Position numbers and translations under genes: made by a program. A stretch of DNA of 24,011 nt, from contig JAUWKS010000051.1 of assembly GCA_030614005.1 (NCBI GenBank), forward strand, positions 1 to 24,011, in the 5' to 3' direction. Shown here in pieces: positions 149 to 9,202 of this stretch (the first letter of the stretch is position 1; the number at the start of each line of letters is the position of its first letter). The stretch comes from Candidatus Heimdallarchaeota archaeon (lineage in GTDB: Archaea; Asgardarchaeota; Heimdallarchaeia; JABLTI01). Under the pieces are notes generated by a model that worked only from the letters and a program-made list of their open reading frames with translations, searched no databases and was not told where the DNA came from.

Positions 149-1372
149 ATGTCTAAACCAGGATTAGAATCAAAAGTAATTGTTTTAGGATTATCACAGT
201 CTGGGAAAACATCTATTCGGCAGGTCATTTTTGAAGGGTTTGCACCTGATTCAACTGCTCTGAATCCAGCAACTGTTAGAATAAACAGAAAGCTGTTTAA
301 TTTAGCTGGAGGAGGCATAAATTTGTTTGATATTGGAGGTCAGACATCATATCTCAACGAAGTGTTTGATCAATATAAAGAAAGAACATTTACAAATGTT
401 AAAGCAGCCATTTTTGTTGTGGATATCTCAGATGCTGCGAATATTATGCGCTCAAAATACTATTTTGATTTAACGCTCAAAAATCTTGCATTATTAAGTA
501 AAAAGTCACGTATCTATATTTTTGCTCATAAAATGGATGTTGTCCAATTGAATAAAAGAAAAGTAATGGTTGAATCAATTGGAGAAATTTTTGAAACAGA
601 AAATTATGATAACGTGAGTATTTTTGGCACTTCTATCTTTGATCAGACTATTTGGGATGCAATGCAAAAAGTTCTTTCATTTGTTTATCCAAGAGATGAT
701 AGCAAAACTAAGGGTATCAAAGATATTGTAGGAAAATTCTCCTTAGAGTTTTTAGCTCTTTCAACTTCTCAAGGATTGGTTCTTTATTCTGAACCAGAAG
801 TTGACACTGGAGTTAATTATTCTAGACTGAAAAATGAGATTACTAAAGCTTATTTCCCAACCAGTTTTTTGAACCAAGCAATATTCACTATTGGAGAATT
901 TAATGCTTTTATGAAAGAATTGGATGATGACTTAGTTGTAACAACAGTATTTCCATCTGATCAAACAGTACCTAAGTCACAGGAATCCTTTACTCAATTG
1001 TGTGAACAAATTAAAACACTATTCAAACCAGATGAACTTCTAGGTCGTGCCAAAGTTAAAATGAGAAAGGCTTTAGAAGACCATCTGAAAAAGAATGGTT
1101 TGAAAAATGTTCATGAACTTGATAGAAAATTAGATGCAAAAATAAGTATCAAATGTGACGTTTGCGGAAAACAAATACAAAAATCGTTATTAGACGTTGC
1201 ACTTGAAAATTCCGAGCAACTTGAAAGAGGGTTAAAAATCTCTATTGGTTTCGGTATTTCTACTGTTGAAATGTATCCACTACACGATTGTATTGAAGGT
1301 ATTCGAGAAATTCCAGTTATTCTAGATGGAAATTTGGAATATCGTCGATATGATAAAAGTAGACCAATTTAA
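149..1372 (+). CDS. Rag/Gtr1-like small GTPase with roadblock/longin-like domain and C-terminal putative Zn-binding domain
   Basis: G1 GLSQSGKT, switch I PATV, G3 DIGGQ, G4 HKMD, G5 TSIFD (Gtr1/RagA pattern). Middle alpha/beta domain (FLALSTSQGLVLYS...LVVTTVF). C-terminal CDVC...HDC. RBS AGGTGA at 139-144, ATG at 149. Confidence 0.88.
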   Translation: MSKPGLESKVIVLGLSQSGKTSIRQVIFEGFAPDSTALNPATVRINRKLFNLAGGGINLFDIGGQTSYLNEVFDQYKERTFTNVKAAIFVVDISDAANIMRSKYYFDLTLKNLALLSKKSRIYIFAHKMDVVQLNKRKVMVESIGEIFETENYDNVSIFGTSIFDQTIWDAMQKVLSFVYPRDDSKTKGIKDIVGKFSLEFLALSTSQGLVLYSEPEVDTGVNYSRLKNEITKAYFPTSFLNQAIFTIGEFNAFMKELDDDLVVTTVFPSDQTVPKSQESFTQLCEQIKTLFKPDELLGRAKVKMRKALEDHLKKNGLKNVHELDRKLDAKISIKCDVCGKQIQKSLLDVALENSEQLERGLKISIGFGISTVEMYPLHDCIEGIREIPVILDGNLEYRRYDKSRPI

Positions 1373-1375
1373 GAT

Positions 1376-1434
1376 AAAAAATTGATGTCTTTTCAAATCT
1401 AATTATGATATGAAAAGGTTAATCTCTTTTTTTT
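1376..1434. terminator. Probable bidirectional terminator between the convergent GTPase genes
   Basis: A6 tract 1376-1381, stem CTTTTCA (1389-1395)/TGAAAAG (1411-1417) with further partial pairing, then T8 tract 1427-1434. Each strand therefore has a U-tract after the stem. Confidence 0.5.
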
Positions 1435-3247
1435 ATTTATTATTTTTTTCATCTTCTTTTTGCTGTACTAAAAATTCTACTAGCCTTTTTACATCGCCTT
1501 TTGAGAGAGTAAGGTTTTCATCTGAATCATCTTCTAAATTGGAAGCTAATAATTCAATCTGTTTTATGTTATATTTTCTTCTCTCTTCTTTCAAGCGGTC
1601 CATAAAACCTATTCTCGTTGGTTTTTTGACTTTTGATTCTACTTTCGTTTCAACTGTTAATTCAGGTTCAATAGACTCTTCAATAATAGGCGCTTGTATG
1701 GGTTCTTCTGTCTCTACAGATACCTCGGGTTGTTCAATTTCTTGCTTTACTTGCGGAGCAATTGATTCTGCTTTTGGTTCTTCTGTTTCCACAGATTCAA
1801 TATGGTCAACTTTTGATTCTGGTATTTTTTCAATTACCGGAGGAATAATTTCCTCTTTTACTTCTGGTGGTGTTTCTGTTACTGGTGGAACAATAGCAGC
1901 AGATATTAGTTCTAGTTCTGCTACAGGTGCTTGAATTGGTTCAGTTGGAGCACTTTTGAGTTCCTCTTTTAATTTATTTAAGAACGTAAAACTACTCTTT
2001 TCTTCTACTGATTCAACTTTTGCTGTTACATCAGGTTTAGGTGTTACTTTCTTGTCAACTTTTTGTTTAGGTGATTTTGTAGCAACTTCTTTAGGTTTTG
2101 TAGCTGTAGACAATACAATGCCCTCTATAGGAGCTTGTTGTGGCAAAGTTGTTCCATCTGTCGATTGAGAAAACTTGCGAATTAATTCATAAAATATCCT
2201 AGTTTTTTCTTCAGTAATAGCGGAGAATGAAGTAATGAGCAAAATATTATTTTCAAGTTTGAATACCATAGCATTTACTTTATTATTAGAAGAAGTGATA
2301 ATGGATGCAGTCGAGCTTTCACCAATTTCATTCTTCTCTTTGATAATTTTCTTGAATTCTTGTAAAGCCGAAATATAATCCATAGATTTCTCTGCACTAA
2401 CAGCTCCTTTTGAAGAGGTCCCAACAATGGGTGAAAACGTTTTGCCATCAATTAGAACTATTTCAACAATGTCATATTCAGATAAATCAAAATTAATTGC
2501 TAGTTTGCCAAAAGTGGGTAAAGTTGCTTGAGGATCAGGATTTAGAAATTCCAATAATTGTGCAATTCTGGGGTCTTCCTCATGTTCCATAATATAGCTT
2601 TGAAATTCATCACTTTCCTCTATTTTTTGACCTATGTTAGTAATTAGTTCAAAGCGTTTTGTATTCATTTTCACTTCATTCATCAAGGAATAAATGACTT
2701 CTTTTAAGCTTTCAGAATAATAAATACTAGATGGTTCAAAACGGATTTTGTATTTTTTATCATCAAATGAATCGGCTATATGACCAAGTAATGGAACTAA
2801 TTCCTCGGGGGGAATTAGATCTACTTTATGGCAAAGAACGGTAATTATACCTTTAGGATTTTCTTTCTTAAACTGACGAATGGTGAAACTAAATCTTCGT
2901 TCTGATTCTTCATATAGATTTGGTTTTGTCATATCTATAATCCAAAAAAGTAATTTCACATTTGAAAACACTAGATGTCGAAAATGTGTTACTGCTTCAT
3001 TCCAGTAATTTTCTTGTCCACCGGAATCGATTATCAAATTAGTTTTTTCTTCATCTAAATATTGACGTTCGTAATGCACTGTTGCCATGTAATCTTCGAC
3101 TTCACTAGGTTTTTTGCCAAAAAAGACTACATCCTTAATTGCTGTTTTTCCTGCTTGCTGTAGTCCCATAAAAAGTATTTTATCCTCTACCTTGGCATCG
3201 GTATCTTTAGATTTTAATTCGTCGATTAGATAGGACATTAGCATCAC
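1433..3247 (-). CDS. Rag/Gtr-like small GTPase with roadblock/longin-like domain and long Pro/Glu/Val/Lys-rich tail
   Basis: G1 GLQQAGKT, switch I MATV, G3 DSGGQ, G4 HKVD, G5 SSIY. Roadblock-like segment (DIVEIVLIDGKTFSPIVG...MVFKLENNILLITSF), then a low-complexity tail. Start is ambiguous (GTG 3247, ATG 3244 or ATG 3238). Confidence 0.88.
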   Translation of the reverse strand: MMLMSYLIDELKSKDTDAKVEDKILFMGLQQAGKTAIKDVVFFGKKPSEVEDYMATVHYERQYLDEEKTNLIIDSGGQENYWNEAVTHFRHLVFSNVKLLFWIIDMTKPNLYEESERRFSFTIRQFKKENPKGIITVLCHKVDLIPPEELVPLLGHIADSFDDKKYKIRFEPSSIYYSESLKEVIYSLMNEVKMNTKRFELITNIGQKIEESDEFQSYIMEHEEDPRIAQLLEFLNPDPQATLPTFGKLAINFDLSEYDIVEIVLIDGKTFSPIVGTSSKGAVSAEKSMDYISALQEFKKIIKEKNEIGESSTASIITSSNNKVNAMVFKLENNILLITSFSAITEEKTRIFYELIRKFSQSTDGTTLPQQAPIEGIVLSTATKPKEVATKSPKQKVDKKVTPKPDVTAKVESVEEKSSFTFLNKLKEELKSAPTEPIQAPVAELELISAAIVPPVTETPPEVKEEIIPPVIEKIPESKVDHIESVETEEPKAESIAPQVKQEIEQPEVSVETEEPIQAPIIEESIEPELTVETKVESKVKKPTRIGFMDRLKEERRKYNIKQIELLASNLEDDSDENLTLSKGDVKRLVEFLVQQKEDEKNNK

Positions 3248-8026: not shown

Positions 8027-8185
8027 TTTAACTTTTATTTGATACTTTGAGTCAATATCTATTCTATTGTAATATTTACCTGTGAAATAATAATCTTTAC
8101 AATCACTGTATTTCAATATTTGAAACTAAATAAATTGTGTAACAACTTATCTTTAAATTTAAGTAATTAGGAATAAAAGGTATTT

Positions 8186-8917
8186 TCATAGAAACTTAAG
8201 GTTATTATTCTCAGCTATTAACTGTTGTATACTAAAAGCAGTTACAAAAGATTTGTATATTGCGTTTTTTAAATCATCTAGTCCTTCATCAGAAACATTA
8301 GAAACTTTCACGGAATAGATGTTATTTAAGCTTACATCAATTCCCTTTCTATTCAAGATAAAATTTTTAACAAATACTTTAGCACTTTCAATATGCTCAT
8401 CAGTAACCATTATATTTTCTTTACAGTCGAGATGCGTACCTAAAATGATGATACTAGTATATTCTTTTACAATATCTCTTTGCATAGCACGATCTAACCA
8501 ATATTCTAGCTCTTGAAACGTTTTTATGTCTGTTAAATCGAAAGTGAGAATTAATGTTAATACCTCGCTTATTGAAGAAACATCAAAATAGAGATCTATT
8601 GCATCTTCAAATGCTAGCCCTTCGCCTGCCTCTGCGCGTCCCTTTTGACCGGGCATAATAAATAATTGAGAGCTAGTTGTTATCTTATATTCTTCAATAT
8701 TTGAGTGAAAAATAAAGTAATTAAATTCTAAATTAACTGATTTTTTTAACGTCTCAATATTAACAGGCTGGATTATTCTTGTCTTAAAACTAGCTAAATT
8801 TAAAGCTGTATGTGTTTTTCCCGTGTTACCATCACCAATGAAAACAACTCCTCCAGTACACGTTATTTTGCTTTCACGCAAACGTATAAGTTTAGATATT
8901 TTATTTTCATTTGCCAT
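8186..8917 (-). CDS. Atypical Rab/Ras-like small GTPase (degenerate G2/G3/G4)
   Basis: Walker A GDGNTGKT. Rab-like LILTFDLTDIKTFQELEYWL. G3 reads IMPGQ and G4 reads THLD. ATG at 8917 (ORF track uses TTG 8929), with GGAG upstream. Confidence 0.75.
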   Translation of the reverse strand: MANENKISKLIRLRESKITCTGGVVFIGDGNTGKTHTALNLASFKTRIIQPVNIETLKKSVNLEFNYFIFHSNIEEYKITTSSQLFIMPGQKGRAEAGEGLAFEDAIDLYFDVSSISEVLTLILTFDLTDIKTFQELEYWLDRAMQRDIVKEYTSIIILGTHLDCKENIMVTDEHIESAKVFVKNFILNRKGIDVSLNNIYSVKVSNVSDEGLDDLKNAIYKSFVTAFSIQQLIAENNNLKFL

Positions 8918-9202
8918 TAGATATAACAAACTCCAATATTAATTGAGAGGCTTTTAAATTAAATTAATTGATTTTTTACACTGATTTTTTTATATTTAAT
9001 AAGCAATTATTATACTTTTCTTACTCGGCATTTTTCGACAAAATAATGATTGACTAATTTTTGGTTATTCTAGAATGATGCTAAAAAAATTAGCACAAAT
9101 TTTCAATGTAAAGTTACTAGTAAATTGGTTAATAACCACTTTTGATTAGAAGTAAATATACTTTATAAATAAGAACGCGCATTTCTAATTGAGTGAAAAA
9201 AA

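Follow-up and report, generated by a model that had tools for sequence, protein, structure and literature searches.

A Heimdallarchaeial locus joining a surface receptor with a candidate folliculin-type GAP longin tail to two Rag GTPases and a Ras-like small GTPase

The stretch of DNA analysed here (24,011 nt from a Candidatus Heimdallarchaeota contig, JAUWKS010000051.1; the window) holds four consecutive open reading frames between positions 149 and 8929, and their description as signalling-type genes in an earlier, sequence-only reading is borne out. They encode Rag1, a Rag/Gtr-family GTPase of 407 aa (149..1372, plus strand); Rag2, of 601 aa from a conserved MSYL start (1433..3238, minus strand; the frame extends to a GTG at 3247); the receptor, a type-I single-pass surface protein (3326..8026, minus strand; the frame extends to a TTG at 8116); and sGTP, a divergent Ras-like small GTPase of 243 aa (8186..8917, minus strand). 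The likely start of the receptor, the ATG at 8026, gives about 1,566 aa; the nearest orthologue has 1,565 aa. Rag1 and Rag2 are convergent, with stop codons 60 nt apart, and because the conserved start of Rag2 lies at 3238, the gap between Rag2 and the receptor stop is 87 nt and not the 78 nt given before.

Rag1 matches Pfam Gtr1_RagA with 114.5 bits (6.5e-33; cut-off 22) and PDB Gtr1 at 2.7e-23, and aligns with 20 orthologues at a mean column identity of 70% (alignment A2); Rag2 reaches 79.3 bits against the same Pfam family (3.9e-22), and its PDB profile match to Gtr1 (4.5e-16) covers the G domain only. The G-domain motifs are GLSQSGKT, DIGGQ, HKMD and GTSIF in Rag1 and GLQQAGKT, DSGGQ, HKVD and SSIYY in Rag2. 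Since both proteins exceed the Gtr1_RagA cut-off, have Gtr1/RagA as their best PDB matches and carry the HKxD and TSI/SSI motifs, they are GTPases of the Gtr1/RagA family. Family and motifs (HKxD, TSI) are common to the eukaryotic Rag/Gtr heterodimers (RagA/B-RagC/D; Gtr1-Gtr2) and the Rag-like gene pair of Prometheoarchaeum MK-D1 (PMC10933270), as is the encoding in pairs of a short, slow-evolving member and a longer, faster-evolving one. The present pair differs from those systems in the extra CCHC module of Rag1, in the 170-330-aa, probably disordered linker of Rag2, and in lacking RagA-versus-RagC orthology: a split into a RagA-like and a RagC-like member is not supported, as for each protein Gtr1/RagA outscores RagC/Gtr2. 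In our tree, Rag2 groups with the long Rags (support 87/81) and Rag1 falls among the short ones outside any supported joint clade; in published trees, the eukaryotic Rag duplication falls inside Asgard diversity (bioRxiv 10.1101/2024.02.28.582541).

Rag1 runs from the G domain through a Rag-type C-terminal domain to a C-terminal extension, and its profile alignment with Gtr1/RagA reaches residues 230-269 of those proteins, into their C-terminal domain. In Rag2, a conserved middle domain follows the G domain to about aa 365 (alignment A3), for which a language-model (Atlas) search points to eukaryotic Gtr1_RagA fragments (score 0.86). The roadblock domain earlier ascribed to both Rags is partly supported by the profile alignment of Rag1; for Rag2 it is a tentative suggestion from the language-model lead. 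The C-terminal module of Rag1 (aa 330-407; 1136..1369, plus strand) combines a putative zinc site, C336-x2-C339...H379-x-C381, with an invariant LEYRRY..SRP end; the four Cys and His residues are invariant in the 20 orthologues, which supports the proposed Zn domain. The module has no Pfam or Atlas match, and is missing from the ~300-aa 'short' Rags of a sister family (f3). The Pro/Glu/Val-rich linker of Rag2 (1613..2152, minus strand) is unalignable, varies in length among 20 orthologues and is probably disordered; it is followed by a short C-terminal motif, L-x-F/L-S-x2-D-[IV]-K-x-[FL]-[AV]-x-F-L (1448..1525, minus strand), a candidate docking peptide in which D585, F592 and L593 are nearly invariant in the same orthologues.

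The receptor has a signal-peptide-like N-terminus and an acidic, Thr/Ser/Asn-rich ectodomain, whose weak Ig-like matches (Big_13, PKD, MG4) all lie below the Pfam threshold; 32 N-x-S/T sequons lie outside and 1 in the tail. The sole segment above 1.8 on the Kyte-Doolittle scale (19-aa window) is the transmembrane helix (P0003 residues 1379-1397; 3926..3982, minus strand), which reaches 3.03 and is followed by a basic YRLVRAR. Orthologues are 34-77% identical to the window's receptor over the whole protein, whereas tail identity averages 73%. On its modelled fold (beta-beta-alpha-beta-beta-beta-alpha-alpha) and its motifs, this cytoplasmic tail (3329..3919, minus strand) is a longin of the FLCN/Lst7 type that resembles the catalytic portion of human folliculin and bears both a GP motif and an ARG loop; the label 'FLCN-like' given to the receptor therefore holds. 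The GP motif, F-D-Q-x-K-G-P (3788..3808, minus strand), occupies the beta1-beta2 turn (tail F38...G43-P44), and the A-R-G-G loop (3563..3574, minus strand) lies between beta4 and beta5. Across 40 diverged tails, F38, Q40, G43, R117 and G118 never vary and P44 is kept in at least 90%; apart from F-x4-GP and A-R-G, these sequences share no long-range invariants and are otherwise ~20-25% identical. The F-x4-G-P spacing is that of FLCN F10...G15-P16, in a register consistent with the VIA alignment, where model residue 30 pairs with FLCN residue 2, and the A-R-G loop matches the S-L-A-R-G-F context of FLCN Arg164, with ungapped flanks (tail/FLCN F105/F152, H107/H154, S124/S171, I126/I173). Both motifs align gap-free with FLCN residues 10-16 and 163-165, Arg164 included, and R117 (ORF residue 1516, codon 3569-3571) is a candidate arginine finger. 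A DENN domain is absent from the tail, no solved longin matches it in sequence, and its 14.6 bits against Pfam Folliculin lie under the curated cut-off of 23.3.

The fourth protein, sGTP, matches Pfam Ras with 27.6 bits (cut-off 21.6) and carries a GDGNTGKT P-loop, an xxPGQ motif without the G3 Asp, THLD as G4 and a GLAFEDA insert. Because P-loop, PGQ, THLD and insert are all conserved in 18 orthologues, 'degenerate GTPase' was an overstatement, and sGTP is atypical rather than decayed. Its 106 homologue clusters are all at least 50% identical, those with a named source coming from Heimdallarchaeota or the Asgard group; its language-model neighbours are Ras/Rab/Roc families, and no MglA family is listed for it in Pfam, NCBIfam or these neighbours. 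Of the families, f1 and f2 alone yielded it; with no sGTP near the sister-family modules of tail and Rag pair, and no homologue detected in the 14 genomes of f3 that were searched, the gene is an addition specific to this lineage rather than a core part.

Synteny, a check set in advance, proved positive. The order sGTP-receptor-Rag2 with a convergent Rag1 recurs in about 28 Heimdallarchaeota loci, spanning two Heimdallarchaeial families and receptor identities down to about 35%; among loci with enough contig on the relevant side, Rag2 comes after the receptor in 27 of 28 and Rag1 follows in 20 of 20, while sGTP lies before the receptor on the same strand in 18 of 18. Where the order is rearranged (L022/L055, one genome), all four genes are retained. 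The window's genome has one tail of this type and four full-length Gtr1_RagA matches, two of which flank the tail gene, so tail gene and Rags cluster beyond chance. In the sister family, ~11 of ~33 other tail-bearing giant proteins adjoin a 'short' plus 'long' Rag pair, and these modules join other giant proteins and other Rag pairs to a tail of the same type. Some paralogous receptors that carry this tail are orphans with no GTPase neighbour (L054, L056, L058, L096-L098), a Rag pair is missing within 10 kb at one orthologous locus (L042), and some genomes hold several receptors and a single shared Rag1.

The earlier proposal of an outside-in Rag circuit is supported in part. On balance, we favour a conserved Heimdallarchaeial signalling module composed of a surface receptor with a GAP-longin tail, two Rags and an extra Ras-like GTPase, on the observed basis of gene content, Rag family membership, tail fold and motifs, topology, synteny and co-occurrence. 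The glycoprotein-like receptor would carry its folliculin/Lst7-type 'GAP longin' on the cytoplasmic side of the cell membrane; the tail, probably as a receptor dimer, would dock the Rag1-Rag2 pair, and its conserved arginine would stimulate GTP hydrolysis by one partner. The nucleotide state of the pair may then be set when the ectodomain binds a ligand, adheres or clusters, with output to effectors through the CCHC module of Rag1 and the long linker and terminal motif of Rag2. Rag1-Rag2 dimerisation, tail-Rag binding and GAP catalysis are steps that we infer, as are the choice of client GTPase, the way in which the signal runs and what sGTP contributes.

The client of the longin tail might instead be sGTP, in an MglB/MglA-like or SMCR8-C9orf72/Arf-Rab-like pair, with the Rags downstream or parallel. 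No gene is coupled to the receptor more tightly than sGTP, which lies directly upstream at every locus counted, with gaps down to 14-21 nt in some genomes and an overlap in L022/L055; SMCR8 and C9orf72, which work on Arf/Rab-type GTPases, are the best AFDB structural matches of the tail, and MglA, which has a roadblock protein as its GAP, likewise lacks the Asp of G3. Nevertheless, tail-bearing paralogues adjoin Rag pairs in the very family in which no sGTP homologue was found, a common client is argued for because the tail motifs are invariant in both receptor groups, and the searches place sGTP with Ras/Rab/Roc; we regard sGTP as an unlikely client. That the tail anchors or scaffolds the Rag pair without catalysis (Ragulator/EGO-like or as a longin 'platform'), or acts as a GEF, the role of most other longin/DENN modules, seems quite unlikely. 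The GP motif and the arginine finger tell GAP longins from other longins (PMC12290439) and are the tail's own invariants, and GAP-complex longins rank structurally above platform longins and roadblocks against the tail model. Inside-out control or trafficking, with GTPases binding the tail to govern how a giant adhesin is sorted, positioned or turned over at the surface or on protrusions, would suit tail-bearing proteins of up to 10,431 aa with adhesin-like repeats (one with a Laminin_G_3 domain), their fast-evolving ectodomains and constrained tails, the Rag1 common to several receptors, and published speculation tying Asgard GTPases to membrane protrusions (PMC10933270); a mere sorting signal, however, needs no catalytic arginine or GP motif, and such a role is improbable. 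It is very hard to believe that the genes are functionally unconnected neighbours by descent: part of the synteny reflects relatedness, because the Band_7 and M17 peptidase flanks are also syntenic in the window's genus, but flanking genes change between families while the four stay linked (L021, L022) and survive rearrangement, the pairing of tail and Rags is repeated in paralogous modules, and the whole set is missing from one closed genome (G026; no Rag1 orthologue, tail or sGTP found).

Among the closest known systems to the favoured receptor-Rag module is Folliculin-FNIP (yeast Lst7-Lst4), the longin GAP for RagC/D (Gtr2). Here, the tail is fused to a transmembrane helix and a giant ectodomain, falls under the Folliculin cut-off and has no FNIP/Lst4-like partner gene; its predicted action is at the cell membrane of a lysosome-free organism. 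A search of the window's 90%-complete genome turned up no PI3K/TOR-type kinase, and the suggested 'nutrient' signalling with a TORC1 link is not supported. The other GP-motif longin GAP complexes, GATOR1 (NPRL2-NPRL3-DEPDC5) and C9orf72-SMCR8-WDR41, are soluble, multi-subunit heterodimers recruited to the lysosome, unlike this domain within a single membrane protein; to our knowledge, characterised eukaryotic longin GAPs are heterodimers without exception, and no second longin gene (FNIP/NPRL3/C9orf72-like) was found at the locus. MglA-MglB, a bacterial Ras-like GTPase with its roadblock GAP, is similar in setting a prokaryotic small GTPase gene beside a roadblock/longin-superfamily regulator, and differs in that the present tail is a longin with FLCN motifs, profile and language-model searches list no MglA family for sGTP, and a receptor and two Rags take part. 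Soluble Asgard FLCN/SMCR8-type longins (PMC12290439) and the Lokiarchaeota Roadblock-Longin (PDB 8yqg) differ from this receptor tail, whose gene is fixed beside a Rag pair; PMC12290439 leaves the choice of partner between ArfR and Rag GTPases undecided and does not mention transmembrane architecture or gene neighbourhood. The parts of the module had already been published separately, and no paper was found on the membrane-anchored tail fusion or its linkage to Rag genes. The persistent gene neighbourhood offers an archaeal counterpart to the eukaryotic Rag switch that is open to testing.

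Four signalling genes lie in the left 9 kb of the window, as the sequence-only reading had observed, and open reading frames, Pfam matches and motifs all bear this out. Rag1 (149-1372, plus strand, 407 aa) and Rag2 (1433-3238/3247, minus strand, about 601 aa) match Pfam Gtr1_RagA, and the divergent Ras-like GTPase sGTP (8186-8917, minus strand, 243 aa) matches Pfam Ras over part of its length. Between Rag2 and sGTP lies the receptor ORF of 1,596 codons, with a probable start at ATG 8026, from which the protein has 1,566 aa, compared with 1,565 aa in the closest orthologue. Its N-terminus resembles a signal peptide, one strong transmembrane helix spans residues 1379-1397 and is followed by YRLVRAR, and 32 N-x-S/T sequons precede the helix and one follows it; these features make the receptor a type-I surface protein whose cytoplasmic tail, about 197 aa long, contains a longin domain. 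The ectodomain gives only weak Ig-like matches in Pfam. A 174-codon ORF (1410-1934, plus strand), antisense to the Pro/Glu-rich linker of Rag2, is most likely a low-complexity by-product and no real gene. The locus is also present in cold-seep metagenome sequencing runs, and one related locus comes from Candidatus Heimdallarchaeum aukensis PM71, whose genome is closed.

Both Rags score well above the Pfam cut-off of 22 for Gtr1_RagA (PF04670; 114.5 bits for Rag1 and 79.3 bits for Rag2) and belong to this family. They also carry the Rag-type nucleotide motifs, defined here as G1 GxxxxGK[ST], G3 DxGGQ, G4 HKxD and G5 TSI[WFY]: GLSQSGKT, DIGGQ, HKMD and GTSIF in Rag1, and GLQQAGKT, DSGGQ, HKVD and SSIYY in Rag2, invariant or nearly so among 20 orthologues in each case, with the G4 and G5 motifs aligning with hkmD and TSIw of Gtr1. 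The best solved-structure matches of both are yeast Gtr1 and human RagA, with orthologue-profile E-values of 3e-30 for Rag1 and 4.5e-16 for Rag2. A division of the pair into a RagA-like and a RagC-like member was rejected, since both match Gtr1/RagA better than RagC/Gtr2 in sequence searches of solved structures (2.7e-23 versus 5e-11 for Rag1; 2.4e-9 versus 2e-6 for Rag2). Rag/Gtr GTPases are obligate heterodimers of two paralogues; the pairing of Rag1 with Rag2 is seen at the gene level, as recurrent neighbouring genes, and the two proteins may likewise dimerise.

Beyond the G domains, where Rag/Gtr GTPases carry a roadblock domain, the Rag1 profile aligns into the C-terminal domain of Gtr1, RagA and S. 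pombe Gtr1, to their residues 230-269, and the middle domain of Rag2 gives an Atlas lead only (score 0.86), to eukaryotic Gtr1_RagA fragments. Neither Pfam searches with the isolated C-terminal pieces of Rag1 and Rag2 nor an Atlas search with Rag1 residues 300-407 returned any match, and hhalign showed no significant similarity between the Rag1 C-terminal part and the middle domain of Rag2 (E 0.17). The last 75 or so residues of Rag1 form a module in which C336, C339, H379 and C381, together with the LEYRRY..SRP terminus, are invariant in 20 orthologues; this CCHC module probably binds zinc and serves in output or docking. In Rag2, the conserved middle domain extends to about residue 365 and is followed by a Pro/Glu/Val-rich linker of variable length and a short conserved terminal motif. 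A literature search on the PDB entries named 'LokiRagM' turned up no paper.

The third GTPase is more divergent. The Pfam Ras match of sGTP (27.6 bits, cut-off 21.6) is limited to residues 121-181, its language-model neighbours are Ras/Rab/Roc families, and the AF2 model built from 18 close orthologues is poor (pLDDT 51). Eighteen orthologues conserve GDGxxGKTH (an intact G1), PGQKG (MPGQ, with no G3 Asp), LGTHLD (G4) and a GLAFEDA insert; the PGQ motif prompted an assignment to MglA, which was discarded, as no search returned an MglA family. Every one of the 106 sGTP homologue clusters is at least 50% identical, most are called hypothetical, and wherever a source is named it reads Heimdallarchaeota or Asgard group. 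A distant paralogue of about 228 aa (E 1e-21 to 1e-26) occurs elsewhere in genomes of f2, which with f1 is one of the two Heimdallarchaeial families with the module, at G034:C175:27180-27800, G028:C16:1442-2053, G012:C38:20453-21049 and other sites; in genome G012, which has it, no tail-bearing receptor was found.

The linkage that the sequence-only reading expected across related genomes holds: the four genes adjoin wherever the contig allows, in an ORF-by-ORF comparison of 13 fetched regions. Rag1 orthologues are found in the genus of the window and in a second family, and the Rag2 gene adjoins them. In that other family (loci L021 and L022) the flanking genes are unlike those of the window and the four genes are still together; the order is rearranged in L022, where Rag1, receptor and sGTP share a strand and Rag2 is divergent, all four being kept. 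A scan with one genome per species gave 36 loci, 29 of them of the main type; among main-type loci whose contig extends far enough, Rag2 comes after the receptor in 27 of 28, Rag1 follows in 20 of 20, and sGTP precedes the receptor in 18 of 18, counts that are non-independent because the genomes are related, receptor identity nonetheless going down to about 35-50%. The exception, L042 (BPTO01000022.1, 4857-20570), has sGTP, a receptor split into two ORFs and no Rag pair within 10 kb downstream, and is the sole orthologous locus with sGTP and receptor and without the Rag pair. The receptor is tandemly duplicated between sGTP and Rag2 in four loci (L034, L037, L040 and L049), and possibly triplicated in L040. 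The window genome itself has one such tail and four full-length Gtr1_RagA matches, two of which, Rag1 and Rag2, flank the tail gene.

Presence and absence of the genes are concordant, bar contig-end cases and one decayed locus; G026, a closed genome congeneric with H. aukensis, yielded neither a Rag1 orthologue nor the tail nor sGTP. At the decayed-looking locus, L023 of a congeneric genome (G007:C74:39000-52695, about 1200-4860), Rag1 is an 83-aa C-terminal fragment, the receptor and sGTP are short pieces with in-frame stops, and Rag2 (625 aa) is intact. To the right of the module in the window, a Band_7/SPFH gene and then a 319-aa ORF without a family match (9952-11788, plus strand) are placed outside it because they are syntenic within the genus and not in the other family. 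Farther on are three consecutive SBP_bac_5 (family-5 solute-binding protein) genes (16215-21583, plus strand) and a fourth large ORF (21751-23625), with no permease gene among the listed window ORFs.

The same tail is found at the end of giant proteins (up to 10,431 aa) in the sister family f3, and about 11 of the roughly 33 tail loci fetched from this family have an adjoining Rag-family gene, usually as a divergent pair of a 'short' Rag of about 300 aa and a 'long' Rag of 560-755 aa. In a maximum-likelihood tree of G domains, built with archaeal Rags, Rag2 groups with the long Rags (support 87/81) and Rag1 falls among the short Rags with no supported joint clade, both placements being subject to a long-branch caveat. 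A search of 14 f3 genomes found no sGTP homologue; this absence and the f3 pairing thus mark the tail and the Rag pair as the recurrent core, and sGTP and the extra C-terminal module of Rag1 as additions of f1 and f2. The same comparison bears on the rival explanation that sGTP, and not the Rag pair, is the client of the tail: the constant place of sGTP before the receptor in f1 and f2 would suit it, and those f3 loci in which tails adjoin Rags favour the Rag pair. As to paralogues of the receptor, a second group in f2 has no GTPase neighbour, and at L062 a 198-aa Rag/Arf-like GTPase (5429-6025, minus strand), a long-branched neighbour of the Rag1 clade in the tree, lies divergently upstream of an orphan paralogous receptor.

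Eleven orthologous tails gave a confident AF2 model of the tail (pLDDT 85, pTM 0.82), in which the elements follow the longin order, beta-beta-alpha-beta-beta-beta-alpha-alpha. The fold is closest to the longins of GAP complexes: in Foldseek against the PDB, the first match is a Lokiarchaeota longin (8yqg, 8.5e-6) and the second is FLCN in Rag complexes (8dhb_J, 6nzd_H), with lower matches to more FLCN- and GATOR1-complex chains, including Lst4, and a TRAPPII chain, and the top matches in AlphaFold/Swiss-Prot are SMCR8, C9orf72, Lst7, DENND6, NPRL2 and FLCN. Sequence profiles of 11 (A1) and 40 (A5) tails retrieved designed helical bundles only, and no longin, from solved structures, and NCBIfam gave zero matches for the tail and for sGTP. 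Pfam Folliculin (PF11704) scores the window tail at 14.6 bits, below its cut-off of 23.3, and diverged tails at 14.2-17.2 bits; it is the sole Pfam family recurring over the same region, that of the A-R-G-G (ARG) loop, in four of five diverged tails. Besides falling below this cut-off, the tail differs from FLCN in having no DENN domain, the protein stopping about 65 residues past the longin core, where two helices are found. A C-terminal DENN domain is present in FLCN and SMCR8 and absent in yeast Lst7. GAP longins of the FLCN/SMCR8/NPRL2 type pair with a second longin subunit as a heterodimer; family searches of the locus ORFs found no second longin gene at the module locus, and the duplicated receptors could supply heterodimeric longin tails.

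An exhaustive profile search returned 124 cluster representatives that carry the tail domain; the proteins range from about 300 to 5,809 aa, and the domain nearly always sits at their very C-terminus. In a survey of 200 genomes from the phylum, two of two f1, 14 of 21 f2 and 10 of 10 f3 genomes gave tail matches, and outside these families only four did, three of them weakly. At the f3 loci L063-L069 (e.g. G013:C193:39709-44819 and G019:C87:11776-16862), a giant protein and a protein of about 1,540 aa stand in tandem, both ending in a GP/ARGG longin tail, with no GTPase gene in the fetched flanks; on sufficiently long contigs the giants have open frames of up to 8,821-10,431 aa, and the rest are truncated after about 2,200-3,000 aa where the contig stops. 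Among 40 tails, many of them about 20-25% identical to that of the window, G32, F38, Q40, G43, P46, D75, R117, G118 and R172 (tail numbering) are invariant, and D39, P44, A116, G119, E121 and N122 are conserved in at least 90%. Two motifs emerge from the conserved positions: F-D-Q-x-x-G-P, at the turn between beta1 and beta2, and A-R-G-G-x-E-N, in the beta4-beta5 loop. G43-P44 opens strand E43-51, so that the GP motif sits where it is described in GAP longins (PMC12290439).

In human folliculin, read from PDB 6ulg_L in native numbering, residues 1-28 contain CHF10CELHG15P16RTLF and residues 149-178 are GFVFSHTFFIKDSLAR164GFQRWYSIITIMMD. Both motifs match without gaps: tail F38-x4-G43-P44 corresponds to FLCN F10-x4-G15-P16, in a register (offset 28) that agrees with the independent VIA alignment of model residue 30 to FLCN residue 2, and the second motif pairs F105/F152, H107/H154, A116/A163, R117/R164, G118/G165, S124/S171 and I126/I173 (tail/FLCN). 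By its alignment to FLCN Arg164, tail R117 is a candidate arginine finger; R90/R91 were rejected for this role, being unconserved in diverged tails, whereas R117 is invariant. The GP motif and the arginine finger set GAP longins (FLCN, NPRL2, SMCR8/C9orf72) apart from other longins, and soluble Asgard longins carry both too (PMC12290439). The fold, the GP motif and the ARG loop therefore suggest that the tail works like a FLCN/Lst7-type longin, with putative catalysis. In a rival reading the tail would be a scaffold or a GEF; the invariance of R117 and the GP motif point to a GAP.

In summary, the module is real and is a variant of the longin-GAP/Rag switch. The sequence-only interpretation is supported in part: the parts, the tail fold, the motifs, the topology and the linkage are established, and dimerisation, binding, catalysis, the identity of the client and the direction of signalling are inferences. 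The best-supported reading is that the longin, anchored by the receptor, would bind the Rag pair as its client and act on it, probably as a GAP with R117 as the finger; events at the surface would then set the nucleotide state of the Rags, the signal passing inward. A less likely alternative, that the GTPases govern deployment of an adhesin, would suit the adhesin-like size of the receptors, but would not need the conserved GAP-type motifs of their tails. A search of the window genome, which is 90% complete, found no PI3K/TOR-type kinase, and the downstream logic known from eukaryotes therefore does not carry over to the module.

Rag GTPases and longin GAPs (FLCN-FNIP, GATOR1) are at the core of how eukaryotes sense amino acids. 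A 2024 structural study described Rag-like GTPases of Asgard archaea, among them an operonic MK-D1 pair modelled as a heterodimer, and noted that Asgard GTPases were generally not in operons with roadblock/longin regulator genes, so that pairs were hard to assign (PMC10933270); eukaryotic Rag paralogues nest inside Asgard RagGtr diversity (bioRxiv 10.1101/2024.02.28.582541). A 2018 preprint had noted Folliculin N-terminal domains in Lokiarchaeia (bioRxiv 10.1101/385732), and FLCN/SMCR8-type longins of Asgard archaea that carry the GP and arginine motifs were described in 2025, the GTPase family that they serve, ArfR or Rag, being posed as an open question (PMC12290439). The literature covered, which is incomplete and leaves novelty unproven, describes neither the fusion of such a longin to a transmembrane protein nor the conserved linkage of the fusion gene to a Rag pair. 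To our knowledge, no eukaryotic longin GAP has a membrane-receptor context. The module thus offers a genomic assignment of GTPase to regulator, with three candidate clients and a putative catalytic residue, and brings the question of the origin of the Rag/longin-GAP switch within reach of a pull-down and a GTPase assay. Taken as a single proposition, which we regard as tentative and somewhat improbable, a folliculin-type longin GAP and its Rag client would already have worked together in the archaeal lineage closest to eukaryotes, where they formed the cytoplasmic output of surface receptors at the cell membrane; if so, the eukaryotic lysosomal FLCN/GATOR-Rag nutrient switch would descend from a receptor-coupled plasma-membrane GTPase switch, and the giant adhesin-like receptor families (to about 10,000 aa) would all feed Rag pairs via one conserved tail.
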